Assembly: GCA_016934735.1 (NCBI GenBank)
Contig: JAFGSG010000055.1
Span: forward strand, 2,111-66,110
Origin: Spirochaetota bacterium
Lineage (GTDB): Bacteria; Spirochaetota; UBA4802; JAFGDQ01
Length of the DNA stretch: 64,000 nt
Reading direction: 5' to 3'
Under the pieces are notes generated by a model. That model was not told the DNA's origin. It did not search any database and was given only the letters and a program-made list of their open reading frames with translations. Position 1 is the stretch's first letter, and each line of letters begins with the position of its first letter. The position numbers and the translations under genes were made by a program. Below are positions 3,771-46,367 of the stretch, one piece after another.

Positions 3771-4424
3771 ATGAACTTTAACTATAAACATATTATATGG
3801 GACTGGAACGGCACGCTTATTAACGACGCGGAGCTGTGCGTAGAGATCATTAATGAACTCCTCGGGAGGAGAAATATACAAGGCATCAGCCTGCGCGAGT
3901 ACCAGGATGTTTTTGATTTTCCGGTAATTAACTTTTACGAAAAAATTGGTTTTGATTTTTCCAAGGAGCCATTCCATATCCCTGCTGCGGAATATATCGA
4001 TGCCTACAACGCACGCAGATTCAGCTGCAGTCTGCATGACGGCGCGCTCGAACTTCTCTCGGTTTTTAAAAAAGCCGGCATAGCTCAATCCATACTGTCT
4101 GCATCAAAGCAGAGTTCGCTTGAAGAAGCAGTCGGCTACTATTCATTGGAGTCTTTTTTTGCACATGTCTGCGGACTGGACGACCATTACGCGAATGGTA
4201 AAATAGACATTGCGAAAGAATTAATAGGGCGTATAGGCGCAGATAACAGGTCGCTTTTGATTATCGGCGATACGACACATGATTATGAAGTTGCGCGGTC
4301 ATTAGGAGCAGGCTGCATTCTGATCAGCAGCGGGCATCACAGCAGGGAAAAGCTTGAACAGAGCGGAGCGCGTGTGGTTGACTCTATCGCGGAAATATCA
4401 AATGCGGCAGAAGTATCTGAATGA
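3771..4424 (+). CDS. HAD-IA family hydrolase (phosphatase-like)
   Basis: N-terminal IIWDWNGTL (DxDGT-type motif I variant), LIIGDTTHD motif IV. Confidence 0.6.
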   Translation: MNFNYKHIIWDWNGTLINDAELCVEIINELLGRRNIQGISLREYQDVFDFPVINFYEKIGFDFSKEPFHIPAAEYIDAYNARRFSCSLHDGALELLSVFKKAGIAQSILSASKQSSLEEAVGYYSLESFFAHVCGLDDHYANGKIDIAKELIGRIGADNRSLLIIGDTTHDYEVARSLGAGCILISSGHHSREKLEQSGARVVDSIAEISNAAEVSE

Positions 4425-6835
4425 AGGTCTCTCATCAGTTAAATACGCTTATTAAGCAAAGGTTGTTCTTTATTTCAGCAGGGACACTTTCCCTTTGCCT
4501 GGTATTATGGCTTCTGTTTTATTCGCTGTTTCTGCTGATGCCGTCCGTGTTCATAAAAGCAGGACTGATCGCGCCTTTCCCTTTGCTGATTATATTTACA
4601 TTATCCCTGATCATCTCTTTAAGTGTTTACCTTTATAGAATGCCTCTTTTCGGGAAAAGATTCTTTAATGAGATATTGCTCCCGCCTTACTCAGCGAATG
4701 ATCTTAAGTCGGCGCTTGAACTGGAAAGCGGAAAGAGTTATCCGCGAACAAAGGGGGACAGCTCTTTAGAAGAAAAAAATATATCGTCCTTTTTCTCCGG
4801 TCAATTCATTGAAAATGTTTCAGCACACATTAAGCTTGAAAAGAGAATATTCGCCGGCCTTGTTCCGGATATCAAACGTTTAACAGTATGCACGCTGATA
4901 ATTATTATATCTATGGTTCTTTCAATAATAAAAAGCGATCTCGTGTTCGATGTTTATTCAGCATTAAGAACAGGCCTTCCTGCGGAACTGATCGCTCTGG
5001 ATGCTCCTGTAAAGTACGAAAAGATTGAAGCAGTGATTACTCCCCCGGCTTATATTGAATCGGGAATAAGTACTGCTGTTGATTTAACTGTTCACGATAA
5101 AATTAAAGTAATGCAGGGTTCCGGTGTCTCAGTAAAAGGGATTTTAAACAATATAAAATCCGGTAAACTGATTCTTTCGACCGGTAAAGGACTGGAATAT
5201 TTTACTGCGGCAATTTTTGAAGAAAAATTTTTCGAAGCTGCCTTTCTTGCTCCGGCAAAAGGCGCTTTTGCCCTTGAATTCGAATTTATAAAACTGGTTT
5301 CGGGTAAATCACGGGGCAAAAGCAAAGTGTACACCATTGAAGCCCTTCCGGACCAGCCGCCCTCTATAAAGATTTTTTTTCCGCCATCTGTCCACAACGT
5401 GCTGTTCGGAAATCCGGTGGAAATAAATTTTACTGCTTCTGACGATTATGGCATACTGGAAATTTCACTTTATCACCGGAATCCTGAAGAAAACAGCGGA
5501 TATTACAGAGAGATTGTTGCGAGGTTCCCGAAAGACCCCAAAACAAATTATTCGGCAAGCCATGTATGGAATCCGGTTATCCGCGAAGGCGAGAAGATGG
5601 ATGAACTTGTTTATGATCCTGGCACGAAATCAGTAGAATATTTTCTTGAAGTTAAAGATATTAATATATATTCAGAAGGCGGTACGGCAAAAAGTGAAAC
5701 AAGATATGTGTATTTTACTGATGCTCTGGCAGACCTGAAAGAAGGAATAAACCTGATCCGGGAATTGATAGATGACGGGAAAAAATTGTTACAGTCACCC
5801 GGGAATAAAAGGATAGCGGAAAATTATAAAAAAAAATTAGCAAAAGCCGTTCAGGTTTTCAGCAAAGAACGGCAGGAAACTATGCCTCAGAGCACGCTTG
5901 TGCAGAAAACAAACGAGATGCTCAGTGTTTTTTATATCGACAGTTCCAAAGAACTAAAAGAATCCCTCAGAAGCTACATCGCTTATCTTGAAAGATTTCT
6001 TGTTTTTATGCAGCTGCTCCTGGAGACCGAGAGCGCGGCTTCTATAGACAAGGAGCTTTCAAGGAATGACGATATGAAAAGCAGCATGGATAATTCTCTG
6101 AAGCGGATAAGCCGCGCTGCTGAGCTCATGGAGAATGAGTTTAAAAAAGATATTGAAGAGATTGAAGAACTCTTAAGGAAAGGCGATCAGGCAGGCGCCA
6201 GGGCTAAGACACTTGAACTCCTTGACAAAATTAAAAAGCGTATGGAAGAGGAAATCGCAAAGTCAATGGCCATGTCGCAGAAAATCGCTGATGAAATGAA
6301 AGACAAACTCGATAAGATGGCAAAGCTTGCTTCGGAATTGCTAAAAAAGCAGGAAGCAAACAGGACGATTACAGATAAGGGAAATATAAAAGGCGCTTCT
6401 GCTGATCAGGAAGAAATAAACGAAGGCCTGCGCAGTCTGAGTGCGCAGACGGAGAAGCTCAGTTCCGAATATCCTTTTGTAATGTACTCTCTTAATTCCT
6501 ATGCCGGTGCGGCAAAGATATACGGGGCAAGGGCTTCTGAAGCTCTCAGCAAATCCGAACCCGGCAAATCATCAAAGGATCAATCCCGGGTCATTCAATA
6601 TCTTAATAACTTTATGAATGCCTCAAATCAGCAGAAGCAGCTTATGGAAGAGCTGGCAAAAGGGAATTTTGAAAGTATTATGCAGCGCGGATATACGAAT
6701 CGTTTTGTGCTTATACCGAAGGAAGCAGTCTATACAATACCGATAGACTATAAAAACAAGATCATAGAAATGAGCAAAGACAGAAGCAGGCTCACGAAAG
6801 AAAAAGAGGCATTCTGGCGGGATATTTTACAATGA
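4421..6835 (+). CDS. Large hypothetical membrane protein: N-terminal TM helices, central beta-rich region, long C-terminal Lys/Glu-rich coiled coil
   Basis: 804-aa ORF overlapping the upstream HAD stop by ATGA; hydrophobic N-terminus; no recognisable catalytic motif. Confidence 0.55.
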   Translation: MKVSHQLNTLIKQRLFFISAGTLSLCLVLWLLFYSLFLLMPSVFIKAGLIAPFPLLIIFTLSLIISLSVYLYRMPLFGKRFFNEILLPPYSANDLKSALELESGKSYPRTKGDSSLEEKNISSFFSGQFIENVSAHIKLEKRIFAGLVPDIKRLTVCTLIIIISMVLSIIKSDLVFDVYSALRTGLPAELIALDAPVKYEKIEAVITPPAYIESGISTAVDLTVHDKIKVMQGSGVSVKGILNNIKSGKLILSTGKGLEYFTAAIFEEKFFEAAFLAPAKGAFALEFEFIKLVSGKSRGKSKVYTIEALPDQPPSIKIFFPPSVHNVLFGNPVEINFTASDDYGILEISLYHRNPEENSGYYREIVARFPKDPKTNYSASHVWNPVIREGEKMDELVYDPGTKSVEYFLEVKDINIYSEGGTAKSETRYVYFTDALADLKEGINLIRELIDDGKKLLQSPGNKRIAENYKKKLAKAVQVFSKERQETMPQSTLVQKTNEMLSVFYIDSSKELKESLRSYIAYLERFLVFMQLLLETESAASIDKELSRNDDMKSSMDNSLKRISRAAELMENEFKKDIEEIEELLRKGDQAGARAKTLELLDKIKKRMEEEIAKSMAMSQKIADEMKDKLDKMAKLASELLKKQEANRTITDKGNIKGASADQEEINEGLRSLSAQTEKLSSEYPFVMYSLNSYAGAAKIYGARASEALSKSEPGKSSKDQSRVIQYLNNFMNASNQQKQLMEELAKGNFESIMQRGYTNRFVLIPKEAVYTIPIDYKNKIIEMSKDRSRLTKEKEAFWRDILQ

Positions 6836-6873: not shown

Positions 6874-7995
6874 TTATGCTTTCTCATTTTCTAAAACATC
6901 TGCAAGCAGAATATGCTCTCCGAGAGGTTTGGCGATATTTTTTAACTGCAGGGCAATATCGTTAATTTCCGGGCCTTTAAATTCCTTGTCTCTGTAAATA
7001 GTAATTATGCCAAGCAGGATATTCCTGTACAGTACCGGCAAGGTAACCTTTTTCCCTTTTTCCTGAAGAATTGTAGAAGAATTTTTCAGTTCTTCTGTTA
7101 TTCCCCGATTTATACTCATAGAATTAAATTCAGAATCGTCGATTTTTATAAGAGCCTTGCCTTTAAGTTCAAAAATTTTATTCAGTCTTGACTGATCTTC
7201 GCTCAGCAGATAGAAAGAGACAACTTCGGAATTATATTCACCGGATATATAATTAAAAAGATCATAAACATATCCTGTAAGGTAGTCAAGATTCAAAGTC
7301 GATTTGTCCGGCTCTCTGCCTGTATCCTTGTGTTCACTTATTTTTTTATCTTTGCCTGTTTTGTCCGGTTTTATTTTTTTTACGGACTCTTTTTTAATAA
7401 AACCGGCCGTCTTCCCGTTGGATGTTTTTGCCTTTTTGTTTAGTTTAATAGATATTAATGCTGTTATAATGATTGAAAAAATAGTGATTAACAATATTTC
7501 AAGAATTAGCTGGATGATAAGCTTTAAGCTGAGTTTATACGGAAAAACGATAAGGAGCTTACCGCCTGTAATATTATTGATAAAAATATAGAATCTGTTC
7601 TGATCGTAATATCTTATTACAAAATCATTCTTTTTATAAACTTTAAATTCATCCCGGATGAAGCCTTCTATCATCGCATCAAAAGTGATATTGGATCTTA
7701 TATATTTTTCATTTTTCATCGCCTTAAGAATTTTATTTTTTTTATCCGCAGCGGCAATTAAAGCAATTGAAGGAAATTTGTCTTTAATTAAAGAGTAATA
7801 TTTTGACAGGTCTTTATCATGCAGTTTTTTATCTTTTTCAAAACTGCTTATTGACAGAACTATTTTTTCGGATGTTAAAATAATGGCTTTAATGAATTGC
7901 TTTTCAAGCAATCCTGTTCTTAACGGAATATAAATAAAAATAATGAGTAAAGTTATGAATAAACATGTTATTATATTCTTTTTTTTTGATGTCAT
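6874..7995 (-). CDS. Hypothetical membrane protein with C-terminal GAF-like region
   Basis: Two hydrophobic segments, Lys-rich linker; C-terminus resembles a small-molecule-binding GAF fold only weakly. Confidence 0.45.
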   Translation of the reverse strand: MTSKKKNIITCLFITLLIIFIYIPLRTGLLEKQFIKAIILTSEKIVLSISSFEKDKKLHDKDLSKYYSLIKDKFPSIALIAAADKKNKILKAMKNEKYIRSNITFDAMIEGFIRDEFKVYKKNDFVIRYYDQNRFYIFINNITGGKLLIVFPYKLSLKLIIQLILEILLITIFSIIITALISIKLNKKAKTSNGKTAGFIKKESVKKIKPDKTGKDKKISEHKDTGREPDKSTLNLDYLTGYVYDLFNYISGEYNSEVVSFYLLSEDQSRLNKIFELKGKALIKIDDSEFNSMSINRGITEELKNSSTILQEKGKKVTLPVLYRNILLGIITIYRDKEFKGPEINDIALQLKNIAKPLGEHILLADVLENEKA

Positions 7996-11094: not shown

Positions 11095-11379
11095 ATGATT
11101 AATAATGAATTTGAAATAACAGTAACACCGAAATCTTCAAAATCAGAAGTATTTATTAACGGAGATAGTATAAAAATATATTTAAACTCACTTCCGGCGG
11201 ACGGGAAGGCGAACTCGGAATTAATTAAACTTTTATCGAAAGAGCTGCATATCGCGAAATCCGGTATTAGAATAATAAAAGGGGAAAAGAGCAGAAAGAA
11301 AAAAATTGCGATAGAGGGGTTTACAAAAGAGGAAATAATAAAAAGGTTCGCTGCTACAGTAAATCATCCAGCTCTTTAA
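11095..11379 (+). CDS. DUF167 / YggU family protein
   Basis: PADGKANSELIKLLSKEL...GEKSRKK motif typical of YggU. Confidence 0.7.
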   Translation: MINNEFEITVTPKSSKSEVFINGDSIKIYLNSLPADGKANSELIKLLSKELHIAKSGIRIIKGEKSRKKKIAIEGFTKEEIIKRFAATVNHPAL

Positions 11380-13207
11380 GGATCGAGTCTTTCTTTTGCT
11401 TTTGATTATTTTTGATCATTCTTTCTTCAACAGGAGGGCGCTCTTTAATCTCCTGTTTTTCTTTTAAAAGATTCGAATCAAAAATAGTCTCTTCTCCTTC
11501 ATTGAACTCAGGATTTCCGCACAGGTCACCCTCAAGACTGAGCCTGTAAATGAAGGCCATAGCGTAGTTATATGCGCAGTCTATTGCTTCGCATACATTT
11601 TTGTTGTTAATTATTTTATCGCCTTCTATTGCCGTCTCGAAACTAATTATATCCTCCGGATTAACTACTATGTTTTTTCCGCTGTTCATATCGTCTATAA
11701 GTGTTTTTAATTCCCTGCACAATTTTTCCATAAACATTTTTATCTGGGCTCTTGCCTCTGCGGCGATATGATTTTTTTCTTTATTGAGGGCTGAAAGCCT
11801 GTTGGAATATTCAATGAATTGAGTGCTGCTGATCGGCTTTTCACTTTTTAATTTGTCAAACGCGGCCAGGGTATTTGCATAGTCGAGCAATCTGTTTTTG
11901 CATTTTCCGATTTCATTGTAAATGTTCGCGAATTTATTTTTGAAATCAAGATTGTCAGAGGATTTAAAAATTGTATTATATTTTATTTTATTTGTTGTGA
12001 GAATAAATGAAAATTCTATGTCGAATTCATTGAAAAGCAGGTTCGCAATATAAATTTTATCTTTTGTATTAACGTTTTTAAATATTCTGTTTTTTGTGTA
12101 GATTTCACCGCTTTTCTCTATATCGATTTTACTCATAAGTTCCAGGCCTTTTTGCACCGGGTCAGGAATGACCTCGTTTTGATCTTCAGCCTTTTCCTTT
12201 CCGTCATCTTTGAAGGAAAGATTGTCATCAAACTGAAGATCAAAAGTCTTTGGAGGACTCTTCTTCCTTTTTCCCGGCATATCTTCCGGGAAGATGGAGA
12301 TTGTATCTTCAATATCTTTGTCGGATATGAATATTCTTTTTTCGTAGCAGCACATGAGCCAGTACAGCCTTGGATATAATTTATTAAAAATTATATAAAT
12401 ATTATTTTTTACCTTTCTTTTGTTTGAAGTAAAAAAAGTAAATTTTTCTTTTTCAAGCCGGTTTTGAAGTTTGAGCGCCCTGTCAAGTGCGATTAAAATA
12501 AGATCCTTATGCTGATTTAGAGGATATAATTTTCTGAATATTTTTGTAAACGGTTCCCTGAGTTCTTTAATTTCCTGAGGAACATCGGGGAAATTATAAA
12601 AGTGTTCCAGTATTTCATTTGAAGTAGTTCTGTCGTAAACATTTGAAAGGAGTTCGATAAGTTCAAAATACACCGGATGAATTTTATCTAATGAGTCGAT
12701 TATTCTCTGCCCGTTTCGCATGTTTTGTTTAAAAATATTAAAGTATATTGTCTGCATCGACAAAAGACACGGATTATATTCTTCATCATATTTTTTTATA
12801 AATTTCGGCATGAAATAATAGCCGGTGAAATCCGCGACATTCATTAAAAACAACCGGAGCCTGATTCTAAATCGCTGTAAAATAAGGCGAAATTGACTTA
12901 TTTCATTGATGTTAAATGATTGGCTCGCAGGTTTGATTTTTTCTTTTGTTTCTAAAGGATATTTAGGCGATGTTTTTTTTTGCGCATTTATGTCCGTGTA
13001 TTGAAACTTATTCTGTTTTTTTTCAGCTTCAAGCCTGTTCCTGAATCGTTTCTGCAGATCCCGGTCAAAATCCGAAAGCTTTCGTTCTTCCTTTTCGTTA
13101 ATTACTTCGCCGCCGGCTTCGACAAATTCGTTAAATAATTTTTTTCTGGTATGCTCGTCCAGCGATGTAACGCCTATATTTTGTTTGGTTTTCTCTACTT
13201 TTTTCAT
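11354..13207 (-). CDS. Hypothetical 617-aa Lys/Asn-rich protein, no recognisable domain
   Basis: Long uninterrupted ORF with RBS context; no Walker, nuclease or TM motifs seen. Confidence 0.5.
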   Translation of the reverse strand: MKKVEKTKQNIGVTSLDEHTRKKLFNEFVEAGGEVINEKEERKLSDFDRDLQKRFRNRLEAEKKQNKFQYTDINAQKKTSPKYPLETKEKIKPASQSFNINEISQFRLILQRFRIRLRLFLMNVADFTGYYFMPKFIKKYDEEYNPCLLSMQTIYFNIFKQNMRNGQRIIDSLDKIHPVYFELIELLSNVYDRTTSNEILEHFYNFPDVPQEIKELREPFTKIFRKLYPLNQHKDLILIALDRALKLQNRLEKEKFTFFTSNKRKVKNNIYIIFNKLYPRLYWLMCCYEKRIFISDKDIEDTISIFPEDMPGKRKKSPPKTFDLQFDDNLSFKDDGKEKAEDQNEVIPDPVQKGLELMSKIDIEKSGEIYTKNRIFKNVNTKDKIYIANLLFNEFDIEFSFILTTNKIKYNTIFKSSDNLDFKNKFANIYNEIGKCKNRLLDYANTLAAFDKLKSEKPISSTQFIEYSNRLSALNKEKNHIAAEARAQIKMFMEKLCRELKTLIDDMNSGKNIVVNPEDIISFETAIEGDKIINNKNVCEAIDCAYNYAMAFIYRLSLEGDLCGNPEFNEGEETIFDSNLLKEKQEIKERPPVEERMIKNNQKQKKDSILKELDDLL

Positions 13208-13390
13208 TTTTAATTTTCCGGAATCTTTTTGCTGCTTTTAAAAATTTTGTATCAATATATCGGTAGATTAATTACGAAGATTTTAGAAGGATTTTCAAAC
13301 CTTCATATATGTTAGGTAGATATGAATGATTTTGTCAATTATAAAATAATGGATCAGCTAAAATATGGCAATCAATAATAAAAAATTTCT

Positions 13391-13425
13391 TGACAAATAA
13401 TTAACTTTTTATACTTTGATATCAT
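13391..13425 (+). promoter_or_regulatory. Candidate sigma70 promoter (TTGACA, 15-17 nt spacer, TATACT) driving the leader upstream of 13688
   Basis: cttgacaaataattaactttttatactttg. Confidence 0.35.
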
Positions 13426-13524
13426 TAGTTGAAATTATTAATATTAACTCATTAAGGTAAAAGCAGAAAATGATCAATAATCAATCCATGGCTCACTCCT
13501 ATTATTATTTTTTTTACTACTCAA

Positions 13525-13605
13525 CAGTATGAGGACTGCTCATGGAATGATTGATTTCTATAGTCGATATTAAGCCGTGGGCAGAAACCCACGGCTTTTT
13601 TATTT
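13525..13605 (+). promoter_or_regulatory. Conserved leader element copy A: ...atgaggactgctcatggaatga...tcgatattaa followed by intrinsic terminator (stem 13574-13581/13588-13595, T-tract 13596-13601); candidate attenuator/riboswitch
   Basis: About 80% identical to copy B at 15108-15190; gctcatgg (13538-13545) can pair with the terminator 5' arm ccgtgggc (13575-13582) using two GU wobbles, giving an antiterminator alternative. Confidence 0.55.
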
Positions 13606-13687
13606 TTTAGGCCTTTTAAAAAAATAAAGAAAGTAAATAGACTTTCTTAGAATTAATTAAAATATAAATAAAACAACAGAGGTAGGT

Positions 13688-14935
13688 ATGGCAGAAGAAA
13701 AAAAAGTTGCAAGAAAGAAGCTTAGAACAGCTGAAGCTATGGGAAAATTTATGGCAGATTATTATTATGAACTGGATAATGCTGCAAAGACCGGTGAGAA
13801 AAAGATTGCGTGGTGTACAAGCGTTGGTCCGGCTGAAATATTAAGAGCTATGGGATTTCTTGTTTATTTCCCTGAGACGCATTCAGCAATGCTCGGCAGT
13901 TCAAGAATGGCCACTGATTATATTCCATATGCAAATGCCCTGGACTATTCTCCCGAAGTATGTTCGTATATGACTGCTGACATCGGAGCTTTTTTACAGG
14001 GTGTGACCCCTTTATCAAAAGCGTTTCCAGGAATACAAAGCATACCTAAACCGGATGTTCTGGTATTTAACACAAATCAATGCAGGGACGTTCGTGACTG
14101 GTTTTCCTGGTTTGCGAGAAGGTTCAATGTTCCGATCGTTGGAGTTGACGGGAATAGACATGTAAAAGTAGTGACTGATACTATTGTTGAGTCAAATGCA
14201 AAGCAAATGGAAAATCTTATTCCGCCTCTTGAAAAAGTAATTGGTAAAAAATTTGATATTGATAAACTTAGGGAAGCAGTAGCGCTTTCACGGAAATGTT
14301 CTAACCTATGGAAGGATATTCTTGAAGTTGCATCAGTTAAACCGTCTCCTCTGACATTCTTTGACGGCTGCACGCTTATGGGGCCGGCAGTTGTTGCCAG
14401 AGGGACACAGCCCGCTGTAGATATATATGAGCAGCTTCTCGAGGAGATGAAGGAAAGGGTTAAAGATAAGGAAGGGGCTGTTGAGAACGAAAAGTTCAGG
14501 ATTTACTGGGACGGAATGCCTGTTTGGGGAAGATTGAGAGCACATTCTGAATTATTCGCAGGATTGAACGCGAATGTGCTCGCATCCACGTATTGCAGCT
14601 CATGGATATTCACCGCTTTAGATCCGGCTGAACCGTTCAAAAGCATGGCAAGGGCATATAGTGAGCTTTTTAATTCCAGGTCTGACGAGTATAAGGAAGA
14701 ATATATCAAAGAAAAAATAAAATTATATGGTATAGACGGTATAATCTTCCATGATGCAAAGACATGTCCGTATAATACAAACTGCCGTTACGGTATGTCA
14801 AAAAGACTTGAGAATGAAACCGGTATACCAAGCCTTATCATCAATGGTGATTTAAATGACCTTCGTCTGGTTTCGGATGAGCAGATGAAAACCAATGTCG
14901 AAGCATTTATTGAACAGCTCGCGGAGAACAAATAA
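13688..14935 (+). CDS. 2-hydroxyacyl-CoA dehydratase family protein (HgdB/BcrB-like beta-type subunit), single-subunit double-cubane-cluster-protein-like
   Basis: KIAWCTSVGPAEILRAMGFLVYFPE N-terminal signature of the HGD-D family; 415 aa; multiple conserved Cys; no paired alpha subunit adjacent. Confidence 0.7.
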   Translation: MAEEKKVARKKLRTAEAMGKFMADYYYELDNAAKTGEKKIAWCTSVGPAEILRAMGFLVYFPETHSAMLGSSRMATDYIPYANALDYSPEVCSYMTADIGAFLQGVTPLSKAFPGIQSIPKPDVLVFNTNQCRDVRDWFSWFARRFNVPIVGVDGNRHVKVVTDTIVESNAKQMENLIPPLEKVIGKKFDIDKLREAVALSRKCSNLWKDILEVASVKPSPLTFFDGCTLMGPAVVARGTQPAVDIYEQLLEEMKERVKDKEGAVENEKFRIYWDGMPVWGRLRAHSELFAGLNANVLASTYCSSWIFTALDPAEPFKSMARAYSELFNSRSDEYKEEYIKEKIKLYGIDGIIFHDAKTCPYNTNCRYGMSKRLENETGIPSLIINGDLNDLRLVSDEQMKTNVEAFIEQLAENK

Positions 14936-15107
14936 AATATTATATTGTAGTTAAAAATAAATATGAATATGATAATAATAAAAATTAAATTTTTATTACG
15001 AACTTTTATTTTTGTCGATGTGATGAGACAGTTTACTAATGTGAGAAATTTTATAGCTGAAGAACTGAACTCAATGATTTATTTTTATTATTATTACTAT
15101 TATTATC

Positions 15108-15190
15108 CTTATGGATGAAGACTGCTCATGGAATGAAATTCTATATAATCGAATTAAAACCGTGGGCGGGAGCCCACGGTTTTTTTTATT
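15108..15190 (+). promoter_or_regulatory. Conserved leader element copy B with intrinsic terminator (stem 15158-15165/15172-15179, T-tract from 15180)
   Basis: ggatgaagactgctcatggaatgaaattctatataatcgaattaaaaccgtgggcgggagcccacggttttttttt; the loop differs from copy A while the stem is preserved. Confidence 0.55.
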
Positions 15191-15349
15191 TATAGGGTCG
15201 TTTCAAAAGGAAGTTAACTGAGGTTTCTCAGCGGTTATAAATAATCATCACAATAATAGAGGTTAATAAAGCTGAGATAAAGAGTAAATGAAAGCATTGT
15301 TTGAACAAATCATAAAAATTAAAAAATTAAATCAAAAGGAAAAAATAAT

Positions 15350-16285
15350 ATGGAAACTACATTAACAAAAATTAAACCGATACAACATACTGAACATTTT
15401 TTTCAGCTGGGAACCCCATTCTTCCCCGTGTACTTGTCCCTTGGAAAAGAGGCAATGCTCATAGAGGGCGGTACCGGAGGAACCCTTGATCTTGTCAAGG
15501 ATCAGATCGGGGAACTGGGACTTGATATCAATAAAATAAAGTATATTGCTCTCACACATTCACATGGAGATCATATCGGGCTTGTTCCGCATTTGATTCC
15601 GGAATGGAAACATGTTAAACTGGCGGCAAGTCCCAAGTCTGTGGATTTTTTAAAAGATCCGAATGTGATTAAACAGTTTGTAGAGATGGATAATTTTATT
15701 GCCGAGAGATTGGTGTCCCTGGGCGAGACATATTCCAAACCTCCTAAACTTGAAAAATATGAATTTAATGTTGGAAAAGTAATCGATGAAGGGGATACTC
15801 TGGATTTAGGCGGCGGTGTCAGATGGAGGGTTGTCAGGATAACCGGCCATTCTCCGTGCCAGATCGCATATTTTGAAGAGAAAGAAGGCACTTTGGTTGT
15901 CGGCGACGGCACAGGGTTGTATTTTCCTAGGATAGACGCTTTCTGGCCCGAGTATTTTTTATCACTTGAACAGTACTGTGCAAGCATGCACAAGCTGTCT
16001 GCTTTTAATGGTAAGAGGGTTGCTTTGAGCCATTTCGGAGTGGTTGACGGAAATTCCAGAGAATTTATAAAAAAGTCGTTGAAAGCTACAGAGGCATATC
16101 ATAATGAGATGATTGAAAGAATCAGGAACGGAGAAGACCCGAATGTGGTTGCACTGGAGAAAACAAAATGGGTACTGAGCAATCATAATTATATGTCGTT
16201 TGAGATAACCGAACAGATGGCCAGACTGCTCATAAAACGTTCGCAGAAAGATGCGGATAAGTCAGGGATGTTTGCCGGTTTGTAA
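15350..16285 (+). CDS. MBL-fold metallo-hydrolase
   Basis: THSHGDHIG (HxHxDH) zinc motif, later His/Asp ligands. Confidence 0.75.
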   Translation: METTLTKIKPIQHTEHFFQLGTPFFPVYLSLGKEAMLIEGGTGGTLDLVKDQIGELGLDINKIKYIALTHSHGDHIGLVPHLIPEWKHVKLAASPKSVDFLKDPNVIKQFVEMDNFIAERLVSLGETYSKPPKLEKYEFNVGKVIDEGDTLDLGGGVRWRVVRITGHSPCQIAYFEEKEGTLVVGDGTGLYFPRIDAFWPEYFLSLEQYCASMHKLSAFNGKRVALSHFGVVDGNSREFIKKSLKATEAYHNEMIERIRNGEDPNVVALEKTKWVLSNHNYMSFEITEQMARLLIKRSQKDADKSGMFAGL

Positions 16286-16296
16286 AATATTATACT

Positions 16297-16340
16297 GACG
16301 CAATGCATTACACTAATGATGCGATTCATTGCGTCTTTTC
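16297..16340 (+). terminator. Hairpin gacgcaatg...cattgcgtc followed by TTTTC between the MBL gene and the activase (possible attenuator/partial terminator)
   Basis: 9-bp perfect stem 16297-16305/16327-16335 read from sequence. Confidence 0.4.
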
Positions 16341-16369
16341 GCAAAACAATACAGAATATGGAGGCCTTC

Positions 16370-17146
16370 ATGCAGTCAAAGCAAGTATACGTTGGAGTTG
16401 ACATCGGATCTTCAAGAACAAAAGTAGCAGTGTTAGATGCGGATAAAAAATTTATAGGACGCGCTATTTTACACTCGGGTACGGATTTCGGCGGCACGGC
16501 TGAAGTCTGTCTTGAGTCTGCATTGAAGATGGCAGATGCTTCCACATATGACATTATTAAAACAATATCGACCGGCTATGGCAGAAAGAACGTTTCGTTT
16601 TCGAATGATACGAAAACCGAGATTGCATGCCATTCCGCAGGCTGTTATTATTATTTTCCCGAAGCAATAACAGTGATCGATATAGGCGGTCAGGACAATA
16701 AGATCATAAAGATAGATAAAAACGGCAGACGTATTAATTTTAAGATGAATAGAAAATGTGCAGCCGGGACTGGAGCTTTTCTGGAAGAGATGTCCATGCG
16801 GCTCAATATACCGCTTGAGGACATGAATGATCTGGCAAGTCAGTCCACTGACATGGTTAAACTCGGCAGTTTCTGCACGGTTTTCTCGGCCACTGAAGTG
16901 CTTGAAAACATCCGGCATGGGAAAAAAGTACCCGATATTGTTAAGGGTCTTTTCTATTCAGTGATCAAACGCGTTCTCGAGATGGATTCTCTTACCGATA
17001 ATGTAGTAATGACAGGCGGGGTCGTTGCACATAACCTCTATCTGGTCTCCATGACAGAAGAAATACTTAAGAGAAAGATATTAGTCCCGGAGTATCCCCA
17101 GTTTACAGGAGCCATTGGCGCAGCTCTCTTTGCTATGCAGGAATAA
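16370..17146 (+). CDS. CoA-substrate-specific enzyme activase (BadF/BadG/BcrA/BcrD-type ATPase; HgdC / DCCP-reductase-like)
   Basis: MQSKQVYVGVDIGSSRTKVAV, IDIGGQDNKII, CAAGTGAFLE; GGAGG RBS at 16350-16354 favours start 16370 over the ORF-track start 16316. Confidence 0.8.
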   Translation: MQSKQVYVGVDIGSSRTKVAVLDADKKFIGRAILHSGTDFGGTAEVCLESALKMADASTYDIIKTISTGYGRKNVSFSNDTKTEIACHSAGCYYYFPEAITVIDIGGQDNKIIKIDKNGRRINFKMNRKCAAGTGAFLEEMSMRLNIPLEDMNDLASQSTDMVKLGSFCTVFSATEVLENIRHGKKVPDIVKGLFYSVIKRVLEMDSLTDNVVMTGGVVAHNLYLVSMTEEILKRKILVPEYPQFTGAIGAALFAMQE

Positions 17147-17417: not shown

Positions 17418-18950
17418 ATGAACGTAGCTACAAATTTAGAGATGTCAGCAAGATATTTCCCTAAGAATCCGGCACTAAGCATGGATGGCAGGGAGATTAC
17501 TTATGCGCAGTTTAACGAAGAAGCAAACCGTGTCGCAACTGCTTTTTTAAAACTCGGCATGAAGGCAGGAGACCACATTGGTATTTGCGCGCCTAATTCG
17601 CCAGAATGGCTTATTCTATACTTCGGCATATTGAAAATGGGTGCAATTGCAATAACACTCGGATTTCAGTTAAGCCCGGATGAGCTTCGTATGCTTCTCG
17701 GACATGCCAAACCTAGAATGCTTTTTACCACAGATGCTCGGTTAAAAGATATTGAAAGCCTCAGGGGCGGAAACGGGATTGAGAAAGTCATATGCCCGAA
17801 CGGCGATATGTCCTATGAAAAGCTGGTTGCTATGGGCAGTGCAAAATTCGAAGCAGTTTATCGTGACCGTGATGATACGGCCTCTGTACTTTATACCGGA
17901 GGCACTACAGGTATACCCAAAGGTGTAATGACTACTCATCTTAATATCAATACTTCAGCACATAATGTAGCATACAGCGAAAGGTCAACCGAAAAAGACA
18001 GGGCTTTGTGCTTTTTGCCGTTTAATCATGTATTTGGGCAGATGCATGTTATGAATGCGACGGTTTTCAGTGCAGGCTGTCTCGAGATACTGTCTGCTCC
18101 GGATATGGATAAAATGCTGGGTCTTATAAAAGCCGGCAGAATAACAAAACTTTTTTCAGTTCCTACAGTTTATACCCGTCTGTTAACTTTACCGGATGTG
18201 AGACAACTGATGTCAAAAGTCCGTTACTGTTTTTCTGCAGGAGCTGCAATGGCAGCCGAGATAGTCCGTCAATGGAAAGAATCGACAGGGCTTTTGATAT
18301 TTGAAGGTTACGGACTCACCGAGACAGCCTCGGCCGTAACATATAATCATTATTATGAACATGTTATTGGTTCCATAGGCGCCACTGTTCCGGGAATTGA
18401 GACTCAGATCAGAGATATCTCTACCGGAGAAGCTCTGGCGGTTGGGAAAGAAGGCGAGATCTGCATCAGAGGGAATAATATCATGAAAGGCTATCTGAAT
18501 AATCCTCAGGCAACGTATGATACATTCTGGCATCTGGATAAGGACAAGAAAAGACATGAAGACCAGTGGTTTAGATCCGGAGATGTGGGATATATGGACG
18601 AGCGCGGGTATTTTTATATTGTTGACCGCCTGAAAGACATGATAATTACCGGCGGAGAGAATGTATACTCAACAGAAGTAGAAGAGGCTATCTATAAAAA
18701 GCCGGAAATTCAGGAATGCGCAGTAATAGGCATACCTGACAGGGAATGGGGAGAAAAGGTAGCTGCCTTTATGATAGTTAAACCCGGAATGAATGTGACA
18801 GGCGATGAGATGAAAGCATTTCTGAAAAAAACGCTGGCACCATTCAAGGTTCCCAAGATTTATGAGTTTGTAAAGGATTTCCCCAGAACCGGTAAAGGTT
18901 CTATTCTAAAACGCGAAATAAGGGCACAGTTTACCGGCGGGAAGAAGTAA
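17418..18950 (+). CDS. AMP-dependent acyl-CoA synthetase/ligase (long-chain-fatty-acid--CoA ligase-like)
   Basis: YTGGTTGIPKGV AMP-binding motif, GYGLTET, later invariant Lys in FPRTGKGSILKRE. Confidence 0.85.
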   Translation: MNVATNLEMSARYFPKNPALSMDGREITYAQFNEEANRVATAFLKLGMKAGDHIGICAPNSPEWLILYFGILKMGAIAITLGFQLSPDELRMLLGHAKPRMLFTTDARLKDIESLRGGNGIEKVICPNGDMSYEKLVAMGSAKFEAVYRDRDDTASVLYTGGTTGIPKGVMTTHLNINTSAHNVAYSERSTEKDRALCFLPFNHVFGQMHVMNATVFSAGCLEILSAPDMDKMLGLIKAGRITKLFSVPTVYTRLLTLPDVRQLMSKVRYCFSAGAAMAAEIVRQWKESTGLLIFEGYGLTETASAVTYNHYYEHVIGSIGATVPGIETQIRDISTGEALAVGKEGEICIRGNNIMKGYLNNPQATYDTFWHLDKDKKRHEDQWFRSGDVGYMDERGYFYIVDRLKDMIITGGENVYSTEVEEAIYKKPEIQECAVIGIPDREWGEKVAAFMIVKPGMNVTGDEMKAFLKKTLAPFKVPKIYEFVKDFPRTGKGSILKREIRAQFTGGKK

Positions 18951-18985
18951 ATATTAAAATAAGTATAAATTCATTCAAAGATAAT

Positions 18986-19016
18986 AAAGCCTGCGGTTTT
19001 CCCGCAGGCTTTATTA
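18986..19016. terminator. Bidirectional intrinsic terminator (gcctgcgg tttt c ccgcaggc flanked by A and T runs) between convergent ligase and DAHP synthase genes
   Basis: 8-bp GC stem read from sequence with T-tract on both strands. Confidence 0.7.
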
Positions 19017-19039
19017 TTGGTTTATTTAATATATTAAAT

Positions 19040-20398
19040 TCATCTTTTATTATAATTGTTTTTTACCCGCGCTTTTTTTAGAAACTCTGAAATTAAAAAC
19101 GCAAGCTCAAGGGCCTGGTTGGCATTCAGGCGGGGATCGCATCTTGTAAAATATTTTTCAGTCAGCTTATTTTCGGTAATTTCTTCTGCTCCACCGATGC
19201 ACTCTGTTACATTCTGGCCGGTCATCTCACAGTGGATACCGCCTGCATAGGTTCCTTCCGCGTAATGAATCTCAAAGAAATTTTTCACTTCTTCCAGTAT
19301 GTGGTCGAATGAACGTGTTTTTATCCCTTTATGAGTCTTTACTGTATTGCTATGCATGGGATCAGTGCACCACACCACATTGCGGCCTTCCTTTTTTACG
19401 CGTTTTATTAATGGGGGAAGTTTTTTTGTAATAAGATCGCCGATCCGCGCAATTATAGTAAGACGGCCTGCTTCGTTTTGCGGATTAACCAGGTCGATTA
19501 GACGTATTAATTCATCAGGATCCATTGAGGGTCCTGCTTTAATACCTATTGGATTTTTAATTCCTCTAATGAACTCTATGTGAGCCTTGTCTGATTGACG
19601 GGTCCTGTCGCCTACCCATAGCATGTGAGCTGAGTAGTCATACCAGTCTCCGGTGAGGGCATCCTGCCGGGTTAATGCCTCTTCATAGTTCAGGAGAAGT
19701 GCCTCATGAGAGGTGTACAATGTTGTTTCACGTATGCTCGGCATGTCTACGCCGCATGCTTCCATGAATGCAAGCGCTTCTCCGATGCGGTCTGCAAGAT
19801 TCTGATAACGCTCGCCTAACGGGCTTTCCTTGACAAACTCAAGGTTCCATTGATGCACCTGATGCAGGTCTGCCAGGCCGCCTTTTGTGAACGCTCTGAG
19901 CAGATTAAGCGTTGTGGCAGACTGATTATATGTCTGGATTAACCGGTTTGGATCAGGAGTGCGAGCATCTTTAGTGAAAGTAATGTCGTTTACTGCATCT
20001 CCGAAATAGCTAGGAAGTTCAACGCCGTCAATGATTTCAGTTTTACTTGAGCGCGGTTTGGCAAACTGGCCTGCTAACCGGCCGACTTTTACAATCTGAC
20101 AGCTTCCCGCGTATGTCAGAACTACAGCCATTTGAAGGATTACTTTACAGGTATCCTGTATGTTTGTTGCGTTAAAATCGTCAAAGCTTTCGGCACAGTC
20201 TCCGCCCTGCAGGAGAAAAGCCTCCCTGCCGTTGACTTTAGCTAATTGTTTTTTTAATTCCTGGACCTCATTAGAAAATACCAGAGGAGGAAATTTAGTA
20301 AGCCGGGACTCGGACCTGCTGAGTTTTGAAGGATCAGGATATTCCGGCTTCTGTTCAATTGGTTTATCGCGCCAGCTTGAAGGAGTCCATTTATTCAT
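19040..20398 (-). CDS. Class II 3-deoxy-7-phosphoheptulonate (DAHP) synthase
   Basis: [12 protein letters not shown] and [11 protein letters not shown]...[15 protein letters not shown] collinear with class II (AroAII, M. tuberculosis AroG-type) enzymes. Confidence 0.85.
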
Positions 20399-21553: not shown

Positions 21554-22795
21554 TCACGGGTGCCCCCATGCAAACAGCATGACTGCTCTAATTTCGTGAC
21601 AGCCTTTTTCGGTTGTTCCGGCCGGGCTGTTGCGCCGCTGCGCATCAATACCATATCCATAGTCGATAAAAACCGGTATAAGATCAGCGATTTTCATTGA
21701 AAGGTATATGGAAATGCTTTGATAATATTTTCTCGGGTAATCCATGACTCCGGTAACTTTATTGTCTTTCGACATATAGAGAATATAATAAGCAGGTTCA
21801 ATTCTGGCTTCCAGAATTCCAAGAGGGATGCCGAATTTTAAATTTGCGATCAGATATTTGTTATGATAAAATTCACAGAAAAAATATCCGGGAATAGCGG
21901 CATGATCAGCTATCAGAGACCCGATCTTTTCCGCATTGTTTCTGTCTGTATTAAACTGCAAGGAGGCAACCGTTTCAAATTTAATATTATAATCATCCCA
22001 AAATTTATAATATAATCCAAGATCAAGATAGTATTTATATACTGAAGGTTTATCGGAAGTATCGGGTACTGTACCGTCGCTCATATTCCTGTCGTTAAAT
22101 GAATAGCCGGATCTATAACTATAATTATATTTAGCCGTTGCGAGGAATCCATTTTTTATAAGGCCGGAGTTTTTTTCACTGATTTTTTTTAATTGAAGTT
22201 GAATGCAGGCGTTATGTTCCGTATGCGCGTCCGGATTGGCCATATTCGCATTATTATCTGAATTATAGTAGTGATAGACTGGAAGGTAGTTTATACCCGT
22301 ATTGAATATTTTAGACCAGTTATATCTTAAATATAATTCCGCACCCATGTAATATCCTTTATTTTCGTTTTTACTATCAGTATAGCCTTTATTATAATCT
22401 GAATACGCGCCGTAGATAGTGTGTCCCCAGATTGGTTTTATTCCTGTGTTGTATTTTTCATTATGTGTGCCGAGCGCAGCAAATACGGTTGTTGTCCGGG
22501 CTCCGATCTCACAATATGAATTTTTTGAATTACTGTAATACTGCCAGTAGCTTAAATACATAATGGGTGATGTTTTATTCTTACCGTTGCTGAATGGCAG
22601 GTCTGCTCCGGCTGCCGATATTAAAGCGTATTCCCTCTTATAACTGCCTTCAGCATATATTACTGTAGATAAAAGTATTAGAATAGTAATAAACCATTTT
22701 ATTAAATTAATAGACAGAATTATTCTCCCGCTCAATTTTAGTAATGAATAATCAAACCAATATAAAATAGTATTTATTGAGAGTATAATTATCAA
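21554..22795 (-). CDS. Hypothetical Tyr/Asn-rich outer-membrane beta-barrel-like protein (start uncertain)
   Basis: Hydrophobic signal-like segment then alternating aromatic-rich strands; no catalytic motif. Confidence 0.45.
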   Translation of the reverse strand: MIIILSINTILYWFDYSLLKLSGRIILSINLIKWFITILILLSTVIYAEGSYKREYALISAAGADLPFSNGKNKTSPIMYLSYWQYYSNSKNSYCEIGARTTTVFAALGTHNEKYNTGIKPIWGHTIYGAYSDYNKGYTDSKNENKGYYMGAELYLRYNWSKIFNTGINYLPVYHYYNSDNNANMANPDAHTEHNACIQLQLKKISEKNSGLIKNGFLATAKYNYSYRSGYSFNDRNMSDGTVPDTSDKPSVYKYYLDLGLYYKFWDDYNIKFETVASLQFNTDRNNAEKIGSLIADHAAIPGYFFCEFYHNKYLIANLKFGIPLGILEARIEPAYYILYMSKDNKVTGVMDYPRKYYQSISIYLSMKIADLIPVFIDYGYGIDAQRRNSPAGTTEKGCHEIRAVMLFAWGHP

Positions 22796-44981: not shown

Positions 44982-46367
44982 TTGTTTCAGGAGTTGGATT
45001 TGTTTAGGAAATCTGATAAAATGCACTTTCTGGGTATAGGCGGGATCGGCATGAGCGGAATTGCCGAGATACTAATAAATCTGGGCTATAAGGTTTCCGG
45101 GTCGGACATTAAAGAATCATACATAACAAAGAGACTCGCTTCGCTCGGTGCAAAGATATTTATAGGCCATAATCCTTCTAATATAAATGATTACAATGTT
45201 GTTGTAACATCGAGCGCAATAAATCCGGCAAATCCGGAGATTATGGAAGCGAAGAAAAGACGAATACCGATAATACACAGATCGGAAATGCTTGCGGAAC
45301 TTGTGAGATTAAAGCACGGGATCGGGGTCGCGGGCACGCATGGAAAGACTACAACATCATCAATGCTTTCATTTATCCTTTATCGCGGAGGAATAAATCC
45401 TACCGCAATTATAGGCGGCAAGGTATTGAATTTTGATTCTAATGCCAGAGCCGGGCAGGGCGAGTATATTGTTTTCGAAGCCGATGAATCCGACGGATCT
45501 TTCCTGCGCCTTCTGCCTACTATTGCTGTTGTAACCAATATAGATGCGGATCACATGGACTATTATAAATATTTTGATGGCTTGAAAGATGCTTTTTTAA
45601 AATACATAAACAATATTCCGTTTTACGGATATTCCGTGTTATGCAGGGATGACAATGTTGTGGCTGAACTGCTTCCGAAGGTTGAAAGGCCGTATGTAAC
45701 TTACGGATTTTCGGAGAATGCGGATTTTAGAGCCGGTAATATCAGGTGTTTTCCGGATATGACCGTCTATGATTGTTATTTTAAAAATGATCTGCTTGGG
45801 GAGATAGAGATAGGACTGCTCGGCAATCATAATGTCCTGAATTCACTTGCAGTGATTACTGTTGCTTTGGAACTTGGGCTTAATTTCGGTGTGATAAAGG
45901 ACGGACTGAAGGAGTTCAAGGGAGTAGGCAGGAGGATTGAAAGGATAGGCGAAGAGAAAGGCATAATCATAATTGATGATTACGGTCATCATCCGACTGA
46001 AATAAAGGCGACCTTGCAGGCAATAAAAAACATGGGCAGAAGAATGATCGTGCTGTTCCAGCCGCACAGGTATACGAGAACTCAACTGTTATGGGACGAT
46101 TTCGGCACAGCATTCGGCAATGCGGATATTGTTATGCTGACTGAAATATATCCGGCGGGAGAAGAACCTATCGAAGGTGTTTCATCAAAACTGATCAAGG
46201 ACTCAATCGAGAAGCACGACGGTAAAAGAGTTGAGATAATAGCGGGGATTGATAAGATCCCGGATTTGATTTTAAAGATCGCCAGAAAAGGAGATATCGT
46301 CCTTACTCTCGGCGCAGGCGATATTTTCAAAGCAGGCCCGATGATACTAGAAGCACTGAGAAAGTGA
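44982..46367 (+). CDS. murC: UDP-N-acetylmuramate--L-alanine ligase
   Basis: HFLGIGGIGMSGIA, GVAGTHGKTTTS. Confidence 0.9.
   Translation: MFQELDLFRKSDKMHFLGIGGIGMSGIAEILINLGYKVSGSDIKESYITKRLASLGAKIFIGHNPSNINDYNVVVTSSAINPANPEIMEAKKRRIPIIHRSEMLAELVRLKHGIGVAGTHGKTTTSSMLSFILYRGGINPTAIIGGKVLNFDSNARAGQGEYIVFEADESDGSFLRLLPTIAVVTNIDADHMDYYKYFDGLKDAFLKYINNIPFYGYSVLCRDDNVVAELLPKVERPYVTYGFSENADFRAGNIRCFPDMTVYDCYFKNDLLGEIEIGLLGNHNVLNSLAVITVALELGLNFGVIKDGLKEFKGVGRRIERIGEEKGIIIIDDYGHHPTEIKATLQAIKNMGRRMIVLFQPHRYTRTQLLWDDFGTAFGNADIVMLTEIYPAGEEPIEGVSSKLIKDSIEKHDGKRVEIIAGIDKIPDLILKIARKGDIVLTLGAGDIFKAGPMILEALRK

Follow-up and report, generated by a model that had tools for sequence, protein, structure and literature searches.

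Tyrosine- and phenylalanine-rich leader elements with the features of ribosome-mediated attenuators precede two genes of an HGD-D/MBL operon in a Spirochaetota bacterium

The stretch of DNA analyzed here, hereafter the window, comprises 64,000 nucleotides (nt) of a Spirochaetota bacterium (assembly GCA_016934735.1, contig JAFGSG010000055.1, positions 2,111 to 66,110 of the forward strand), and all coordinates are given in the numbering of the window unless another locus is named. Its + strand carries an operon in which two genes are each preceded by a copy of a short leader element. The first of these genes (13688-14935) encodes a protein of 415 amino acids (aa) of the HGD-D family, that is, 2-hydroxyacyl-CoA dehydratase / benzoyl-CoA reductase-like (Pfam PF06050, E 4.8e-69), and among solved structures it comes nearest to the HadB alpha subunit of 2-hydroxyisocaproyl-CoA dehydratase (2.3e-46). 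The second (15350-16285) encodes a 311-aa MBL-fold protein (Pfam PF00753) whose closest solved relative is PqsE, a 2-aminobenzoylacetyl-CoA thioesterase (E 2e-15, residues 14-219); by sequence it is a probable thioesterase. They are followed on the same strand by a gene for a BcrAD/BadFG-type activase, the ATP-dependent electron donor for HGD-D enzymes (16316-17146; Pfam PF01869, NCBIfam TIGR00241 above cut-off), and by the last gene of the operon, which encodes an AMP-binding acyl-CoA ligase (17418-18950; Pfam PF00501 and PF13193). We propose, with a probability of about 0.87 and on the strength of sequence comparison and folding models, that each leader element is a ribosome-mediated (leader-peptide) transcription attenuator which senses the supply of charged tRNA-Tyr and tRNA-Phe.

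A preliminary description of this region had placed two related elements at 13525-13605 and 15108-15190, and homologous copies were indeed present at both positions. Global alignment of these two segments gave 66 identical columns out of 86 (77%), and a MAFFT alignment of the two copies over 162 columns gave 82% identity, which puts them at about 77-82% identical; the flanks adjoining the copies showed only 56-57% identity when aligned. Exactly two occurrences of the 17-mer GACTGCTCATGGAATGA were found in the window, one at 13534 and the other at 15120, both on the + strand, the chance expectation for matches with up to three mismatches being 0.15. No third copy was detected within the window by a covariance model run with its filters off. 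The location of the copies thus stood as described, but their starts had been set too late, as the homology extends about 55 nt further upstream, and this additional segment covers a short open reading frame (ORF) rich in Tyr and Phe codons which had been overlooked. Leader ORF 1 (13470-13532, +) encodes MINNQSMAHSYYYFFYYSTV, contains seven consecutive aromatic codons at 13500-13520 and ends at a TGA stop (13530-13532), with AAGG located 12 nt 5' of its ATG. Leader ORF 2 (15074-15118, +) encodes MIYFYYYYYYYPYG, with nine consecutive aromatic codons at 15080-15106, one more at 15110 and a TGA stop at 15116-15118. No other short ORF in any of the window's six frames was enriched in Tyr, and Tyr makes up 25-64% of the leader peptides as against 3.5% of the window's proteins. 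TGA is an ordinary stop codon in this genome, being used by 12 of the 39 long ORFs. We had considered a mini-ORF (ATG GAA TGA, Met-Glu-stop) or an ORF starting from ATGAGG as the leader, and dropped both when the upstream homology revealed the real frame.

As described before, each copy closes with a hairpin that has a T tract on its 3' side, and the stem core (CCGTGGG/CCCACGG) is identical while the loops differ. Terminator 1 (13572-13608, +) has the stem AAGCCGTGGG/CCCACGGCTT, the loop CAGAAA and then T6-A-T6; its hairpin (13572-13597) was reported by the terminator scan with 10 bp, seven of them GC, and has an energy of -18.7 kcal/mol. Terminator 2 (15156-15191, +) has the stem AAAACCGTGGGC/GCCCACGGTTTT, the loop GGGA and a T8 tract, and its hairpin (15156-15183) has 12 bp, again with seven GC, and an energy of -21.1 kcal/mol. 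A compensatory difference, G-C to A-U, separates the two copies at the base of the terminator stem. The competing pairing GCTCATGG:CCGTGGGC, noticed earlier as an 8-bp antiterminator, was recovered as well and, when extended, reaches 10 bp (CUGCUCAUGG:CCGUGGGCAG in copy 1, CCGUGGGCGG in copy 2), with duplex energies of -17.1 kcal/mol in copy 1 and -16.2 kcal/mol in copy 2. When the upstream 51 nt were shuffled with dinucleotide content preserved, none of 1000 shuffles matched the duplex of copy 1 and one of 1000 that of copy 2. Each element can be divided into four pairing segments. In copy 1, region 1 (TCCATGGC, 13485-13492) lies within the leader ORF and is the partner of region 2 in minimum free energy (MFE) folds when the ribosome is absent; region 2, the 5' arm of the antiterminator (CTGCTCATGG, 13536-13545), begins 3 nt past the leader stop; and region 3 (CCGTGGGCAG, 13575-13584) is common to the antiterminator, which it forms with region 2, and the terminator, which it forms with region 4. 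The corresponding segments of copy 2 are region 2 at 15122-15131 (CTGCTCATGG) and region 3 at 15160-15169 (CCGTGGGCGG), all on the + strand.

We searched for further members of the family through the neighbours of homologous proteins and through pattern scans, and found seven additional distinct homologues with the same layout in metagenome-assembled genomes (MAGs) of Spirochaetota and 'Deltaproteobacteria' and in metagenomes. The family thus consists of nine distinct sequences, and the alignments used 10 sequences. Five elements (L002a, L002b, L003, L005 and L008) came from the upstream regions of HGD-D homologues, where no DNA pattern was imposed; their HGD-D proteins are 91% (L002, in which both copies are present), 78% (L003), 75% (L005) and 74% (L008) identical to that of the window. 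Three others (L010, L012 and L055) came from the pattern scans. Among species-representative genomes the scan returned 18 matches, of which four were genuine, namely two of the loci already obtained through HGD-D and the 'Deltaproteobacteria' MAGs L010 and L012; among metagenome contigs 2 of 54 matches were genuine (L055, and L077, which is the same as L012); and viral contigs gave none. The false matches lay in GC-rich coding DNA and had neither a T tract nor an aromatic run. A covariance model (R1) built from the nine sequences was run on the window with filters off and on 23 related loci. It found the seed elements and their reverse-strand terminators and no divergent members. The next-best forward match of R1 in the window (45512-45605, 24.8 bits) was rejected, being inside a coding region.

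Every member of the family lies 20-160 nt 5' of an HGD-D or MBL gene and on the same strand, despite differences in gene order between loci. Behind the leader of L010 come MBL, activase and HGD-D genes in that order, and the leaders of L012 and L055 are followed by the MBL gene alone. The earlier view that the elements stand before two genes of one pathway is supported. The arrangements in the family also bear on the idea that the copies are trans-acting small RNAs (sRNAs), or a repeat or mobile element which merely carries a terminator, the (TAT)n run being a microsatellite and the ORF accidental. A search with cmscan did show a weak, terminator-driven resemblance to the sRNAs MicF and MicC, and the element is duplicated within 1.6 kb. 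But the 64 kb contain no more than two copies, viral contigs contain none, all members face and adjoin the same two gene families across phyla, and the runs mix TAT, TAC, TTT and TTC in frame with a conserved ATG and stop, as a microsatellite would not. We therefore consider an origin of this kind very improbable.

The leader peptides themselves were compared next to one another. L008 encodes MKALLRALNYYYYYYYYYLNS, L003 encodes MITNQSRAYTYTYYYFYYNKIGLLMD, L010 encodes MIKANQTIGTLYYYFYYFYGRGLLMV, and L012 and L055 encode MT[AV]NQSRAYLYYYYYY[TS]KRRGLLMD, each followed by a stop. All leaders hold 5-10 Tyr/Phe codons, with up to nine consecutive Tyr, and an N-terminal NQ[ST]xA motif is kept in the homologues together with the aromatic run. 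The leader of L005 (5795-5851 of that locus; MTNFQTMAFTFSNFKFTG and a stop) uses Phe codons only and stands before an operon of HGD-D, FAD-oxidase and FeS genes in which there is no MBL gene, so a single RNA family includes members with different regulatory amino acids. Within the runs TAT is interchanged with TAC, AGG and AGA replace each other synonymously between L012 and L055, and in the L002 leader, where His9 is replaced by Tyr, both in-frame stops have gone from TGA to TAA; the change of 'tatgagg' to 'tataagg' in L002 is accordingly a stop-to-stop change in the leader frame. These synonymous and stop-to-stop changes indicate that selection maintains this as a reading frame. Past the leader stop (13533-13550 in copy 1, 15119-15136 in copy 2) the frame goes on as G/R-L-L-M-E/D up to a second in-frame stop at 13548-13550 and 15134-15136, respectively. 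In L003, L010, L012 and L055 the first stop is missing and the ORF is 15 nt longer, running through CTG CTC ATG GNN and ending in GLLM[DV]; the later stop which closes these longer ORFs is in frame in every member of the family. It could be a back-up stop or the ancestral end of the ORF.

The conservation of the ORFs, their NQ[ST]xA motif and their position next to HGD-D and activase genes could also be read as signs of functional Tyr-rich micropeptides, for example precursors or substrates of the neighbouring radical-type enzymes, with the hairpin acting as a leaky terminator that sets the ratio of peptide to enzyme transcripts. Leaky terminators follow precursor-peptide genes in clusters for ribosomally synthesized and post-translationally modified peptides. 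However, the length of the leader and its sequence after the aromatic run vary freely, Phe replaces Tyr in L005, and the stop comes before the GLLMD segment in some members and after it in others. The position of the stop relative to the antiterminator is conserved. The invariant CTGCTCATGG moreover shows no synonymous variation, which points to a constraint on the RNA; in L012 and L055 the peptide is linked to the MBL gene alone; and we know of no HGD-D/activase system that acts as a peptide-modifying enzyme. A micropeptide function of this sort appears improbable to us.

We then asked how the RNA would fold across the family. The RNAalifold consensus of the 10 sequences contained the terminator and nothing else, with two GC<->AU compensatory pairs and one UA->UG change in its stem. 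Region 2 (CTGCTCATGG) and the region 3 core (CCGTGGG) are invariant in all 10. Covariation, which had been proposed in the preliminary description as a check, thus bears out the terminator stem, with compensatory pairs across homologues, and does not extend to the antiterminator, whose two arms do not change. Such invariance is to be expected since the segment must pair with two different partners. Over all sequences the 2:3 duplex has 9-10 bp and an energy of -13 to -17 kcal/mol, equalled by 0-7 of 1000 shuffles. When region 4 was withheld, the MFE structure was the antiterminator in 10 of 10 sequences, in which CUGCUCAUGG pairs with CCGUGGGC plus one or two nt of the loop and a small hairpin is enclosed; its energy (-15 to -25 kcal/mol) is similar to that of the terminator hairpins (-16 to -25 kcal/mol).

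A terminator/antiterminator pair in a 5' leader with strongly conserved core sequences is also what a metabolite-binding riboswitch would show, in which an aptamer upstream of the terminator binds a pathway intermediate or a CoA ester and selects between the two structures, and this was the interpretation favoured at first. We found little to sustain it. The terminator is the sole consensus helix and no conserved ligand-binding fold was seen; conservation outside regions 2-4 tracks the reading frame (start, aromatic run and stop) and not a fold; the spacer between regions 2 and 3 is just 28-34 nt long and variable; and the exchange of Tyr for Phe codons in L005 is accounted for if the sequence is translated but not if it is an aptamer. 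No Rfam family matched the whole window at the gathering threshold, and an E-value search of 13200-15400 gave sub-threshold, terminator-driven matches alone (MicF, 32 bits against 79). The upstream stretch in which an aptamer would be sought is the translated-looking leader ORF. A riboswitch is accordingly highly unlikely, and CoA esters and pathway substrates, the ligands proposed for it, are not the expected ones.

Translation of the leader, on the other hand, gives the geometry a simple meaning. In both copies and in the seven other homologues a short leader ORF lies upstream of the gene on the same strand. It carries a cluster of Tyr/Phe codons and is followed, before the gene, by an intrinsic terminator; to these features are added an antiterminator exclusive of the terminator, a spacing that suits a ribosome, and a 1:2 hairpin available to an untranslated leader. 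The stop codon is 3 nt before region 2, or just after it in some homologues, and the last aromatic codon is 9-15 nt before. We placed a ribosome on each of the nine distinct sequences, with its leading edge 13 nt beyond the A site, and folded the remaining RNA. With the A site on any aromatic codon and the transcript made up to region 3, 8-10 bp of the 2:3 pairing formed. When the A site was moved to the stop codon, the ribosome covered region 2, no bp of 2:3 remained and the terminator was complete. With no ribosome the full-length MFE structure paired region 2 with a segment of the ORF and the terminator formed, in 9 of 9 sequences. A leader ORF with a conserved start, aromatic codon runs and a stop positioned for occlusion of the antiterminator makes the ribosome reading Tyr and Phe codons the most likely sensor.

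We infer that the leader is translated, that this translation is coupled to transcription and that the outcome responds to Tyr and Phe in the following way. Transcription would begin upstream, and a ribosome would translate the leader ORF of 14-20 codons, 7-10 of them aromatic. When charged Tyr- and Phe-tRNA are plentiful, the ribosome would reach the stop codon and physically cover region 2 (CUGCUCAUGG); region 3 (CCGUGGGC) would then pair with region 4 (GCCCACGG), and the resulting terminator would halt RNA polymerase before the structural gene. When they are scarce, the ribosome would stall in the aromatic run, at least 9-15 nt 5' of region 2, and the 2:3 structure (9-10 bp plus the enclosed small hairpin) would form once region 3 has been made, blocking the terminator and letting the operon be transcribed. 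In the absence of a ribosome, region 1 in the ORF would pair with region 2 and termination would again follow. Copy 1 would in this manner gate the HGD-D-like gene, and copy 2 sits before the MBL, activase and CoA-ligase genes. A putative sigma-70-type promoter for leader 1, read from the sequence, lies at 13390-13417 (+; TTGACA, 16 nt, TACTTT), and the TTGACA hexamer is found 78-83 nt 5' of the leader ATG in the window, L002, L003 and L005, so that it is a plausible promoter of copy 1; a promoter scan offers 13416-13444 as an alternative. Copy 2 lies 140 nt 3' of the HGD-D stop, and the interval contains no further terminator. Either copy 2 would act as a second checkpoint for the transcript that has passed copy 1, or a weak internal promoter would give rise to a separate transcript of which copy 2 is the leader. 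A Lys-rich ORF of 25 codons at 15288-15365 (MKALFEQIIKIKKLNQKEKIIWKLH and a stop) follows terminator 2 and overlaps the MBL start; it is probably a chance occurrence in AT-rich sequence.

Several observations weigh against attenuation by Tyr/Phe codons and have to be set beside those above. The genes concerned are not recognized genes of Tyr or Phe biosynthesis, and for this reason the physiological logic has been deduced from the leader, rather than the role of the leader from the genes. The start codon of the copy 2 leader is ambiguous, as longer in-frame starts exist at 15023 and 14963 besides 15074, and a 51-aa form was annotated by the gene caller in L001, the locus of the window's own HGD-D gene; in several members the leader ORF is preceded by a weak Shine-Dalgarno sequence or by none. 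With regions 2 and 3 invariant, the antiterminator has energetic and positional support and none from covariation, and the pairing of region 1 with region 2 in copy 2 is weak, the weakest of the nine. The family is small at nine distinct sequences. Several orthologous operons (L004, L006/L007, L083-L086 and L090-L092) have no such leader, from which it follows that the element is lineage-restricted. It may be noted that run SRR13394437 yielded both the window's HGD-D gene and L009, and that L010 and L008 share the 'Zod_Metabat' isolate prefix; the invariance of regions 2 and 3 may reflect a recent horizontal spread of the module between phyla in one habitat. Two of the leaderless loci showed features of their own. 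L006 carries at 1990-2235, between the HGD-D homologue and the activase gene, an array in which a unit of 28-30 nt with CCGTAGG(G/A)A recurs about eight times. In L083 (1742-2185) and its relatives from 'Deltaproteobacteria', the genes for activase, HGD-D, CoA ligase and thiolase come after those for an ACT-domain protein and an ApbA-type reductase, and the ACT domain hints that amino acids are sensed there by a protein instead.

The mechanism which we propose is a classical one; what is new is the Tyr specificity, the host phyla and the target genes. The pheL/pheA (Enterobacteria, RF01859) and pheM/pheST leaders likewise have a short ORF with aromatic codons, an intrinsic terminator and 1:2, 2:3 and 3:4 hairpins that exclude one another, and in these systems, as in trpL, the supply of charged tRNA is sensed through the position of the ribosome (PMC3082878, PMC11802643, PMC1183508). 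RF01859 (Phe_leader) was among the best Rfam resemblances on both copies, at 21.0 and 20.4 bits (E about 2-3), well below its gathering threshold of 55, so the elements are not members of that family. They differ from pheL and pheM, in addition to the lack of sequence or model membership, in having mainly Tyr codons, up to nine in a row, in their hosts (Spirochaetota and 'Deltaproteobacteria' MAGs), in their HGD-D-like and MBL targets in place of pheA and pheST, and in the presence of two attenuators within one gene cluster. The trpL leader of the E. coli trp operon has the same four-segment logic, including termination of an untranslated leader (1:2 with 3:4), but it has two Trp codons and no long run and bears no sequence relation to the elements described here, in which the stop lies directly before or at region 2, so that occlusion by the terminating ribosome would be very direct. 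The aroR leader of aroF in Corynebacterium glutamicum is also attenuated through mixed aromatic codons and has an aromatic amino-acid gene as target; according to a later summary of Neshat et al. 2014, its three regulatory codons are Phe-Tyr-Phe and it was reported to respond to limitation for Phe, not Tyr (PMC11802643). In our family, which has other targets and belongs to another phylum, the runs of Tyr are long and Tyr is expected to be the main signal. The T-box leaders of tyrS and other Tyr-related genes in Firmicutes read the charging of tRNA-Tyr too and choose between antiterminator and terminator, but they bind uncharged tRNA through a large conserved RNA fold and have no leader ORF, and the T-box family RF00230 gave no match in the window at the gathering threshold or in 13200-15400 at E<=10. 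A 2005 survey listed tyrosine under T-box regulation and not among attenuators (PMC1262725), and according to a 2010 survey the leader-peptide systems known at that time were confined to Proteobacteria, Actinobacteria and the survey's own cases in Firmicutes (PMC2965389). Our literature search turned up no published leader-peptide attenuator with long tyrosine runs and no report tying HGD-D/MBL clusters to tyrosine biosynthesis.

Around the operon we noticed the following. It ends at a hairpin with a 17-bp stem (18980-19018), which is shared with a convergent gene for a class II 3-deoxy-D-arabino-heptulosonate 7-phosphate (DAHP) synthase (19040-20398, - strand) and is probably a bidirectional terminator. 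Of the neighbouring genes in the window that were checked for a function in aromatic pathways, the DAHP synthase gene was the only relevant one, and its position next to an operon with Tyr-rich leaders may or may not be meaningful. No Pfam match was obtained for the ORFs at 11354-13207 (-, 617 aa), 4421-6835 (+, 804 aa), 6874-7995 (-, 373 aa) and 21554-22561 (-, 335 aa); the 617-aa ORF, which is divergent from the promoter region of leader 1, had no NCBIfam match either. HGD-D homologues number 7068 at E<=1e-30 and retain about 70% identity across phyla, and related operons additionally carry an FAD-linked oxidase and an FeS/CCG protein of the GlcD/GlcF 2-hydroxyacid dehydrogenase type.

An attenuator built on a run of codons activates its genes when the cognate amino acid is scarce; the operon is therefore predicted to supply Tyr and Phe, and it probably serves that purpose. 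How it might do so can be stated tentatively. It is possible, though we regard it as unlikely, that the attenuators mark an unrecognized anaerobic route by which aryl-acrylates or aryl-lactates (for example p-coumarate or cinnamate) would be turned into 4-hydroxyphenylpyruvate or phenylpyruvate and from there into Tyr or Phe. In a chemically coherent scheme the ligase would convert the aryl-acrylate into its CoA ester, the radical enzyme, working as a hydratase in the reverse direction, would make the (R)-2-hydroxyacyl-CoA, the thioesterase would free the 2-hydroxy acid, the FAD/FeS dehydrogenase would oxidize this to the 2-oxo acid, and transamination would give the amino acid. If true, it would amount to the reductive branch of the Stickland reaction run in reverse and induced by shortage of Tyr-tRNA, apparently common to Spirochaetota and Desulfobacterota. 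Few leader-peptide systems are known so far from MAGs of Spirochaetota and 'Deltaproteobacteria'. The regulatory codons would provide a functional label for a widespread, highly conserved and uncharacterized set, namely a single-subunit HGD-D-like enzyme, its activase and a probable thioesterase of the MBL fold. Many ATP-driven radical enzymes have no known physiological substrate, and for this one the codons of the leader give a concrete biochemical hypothesis.

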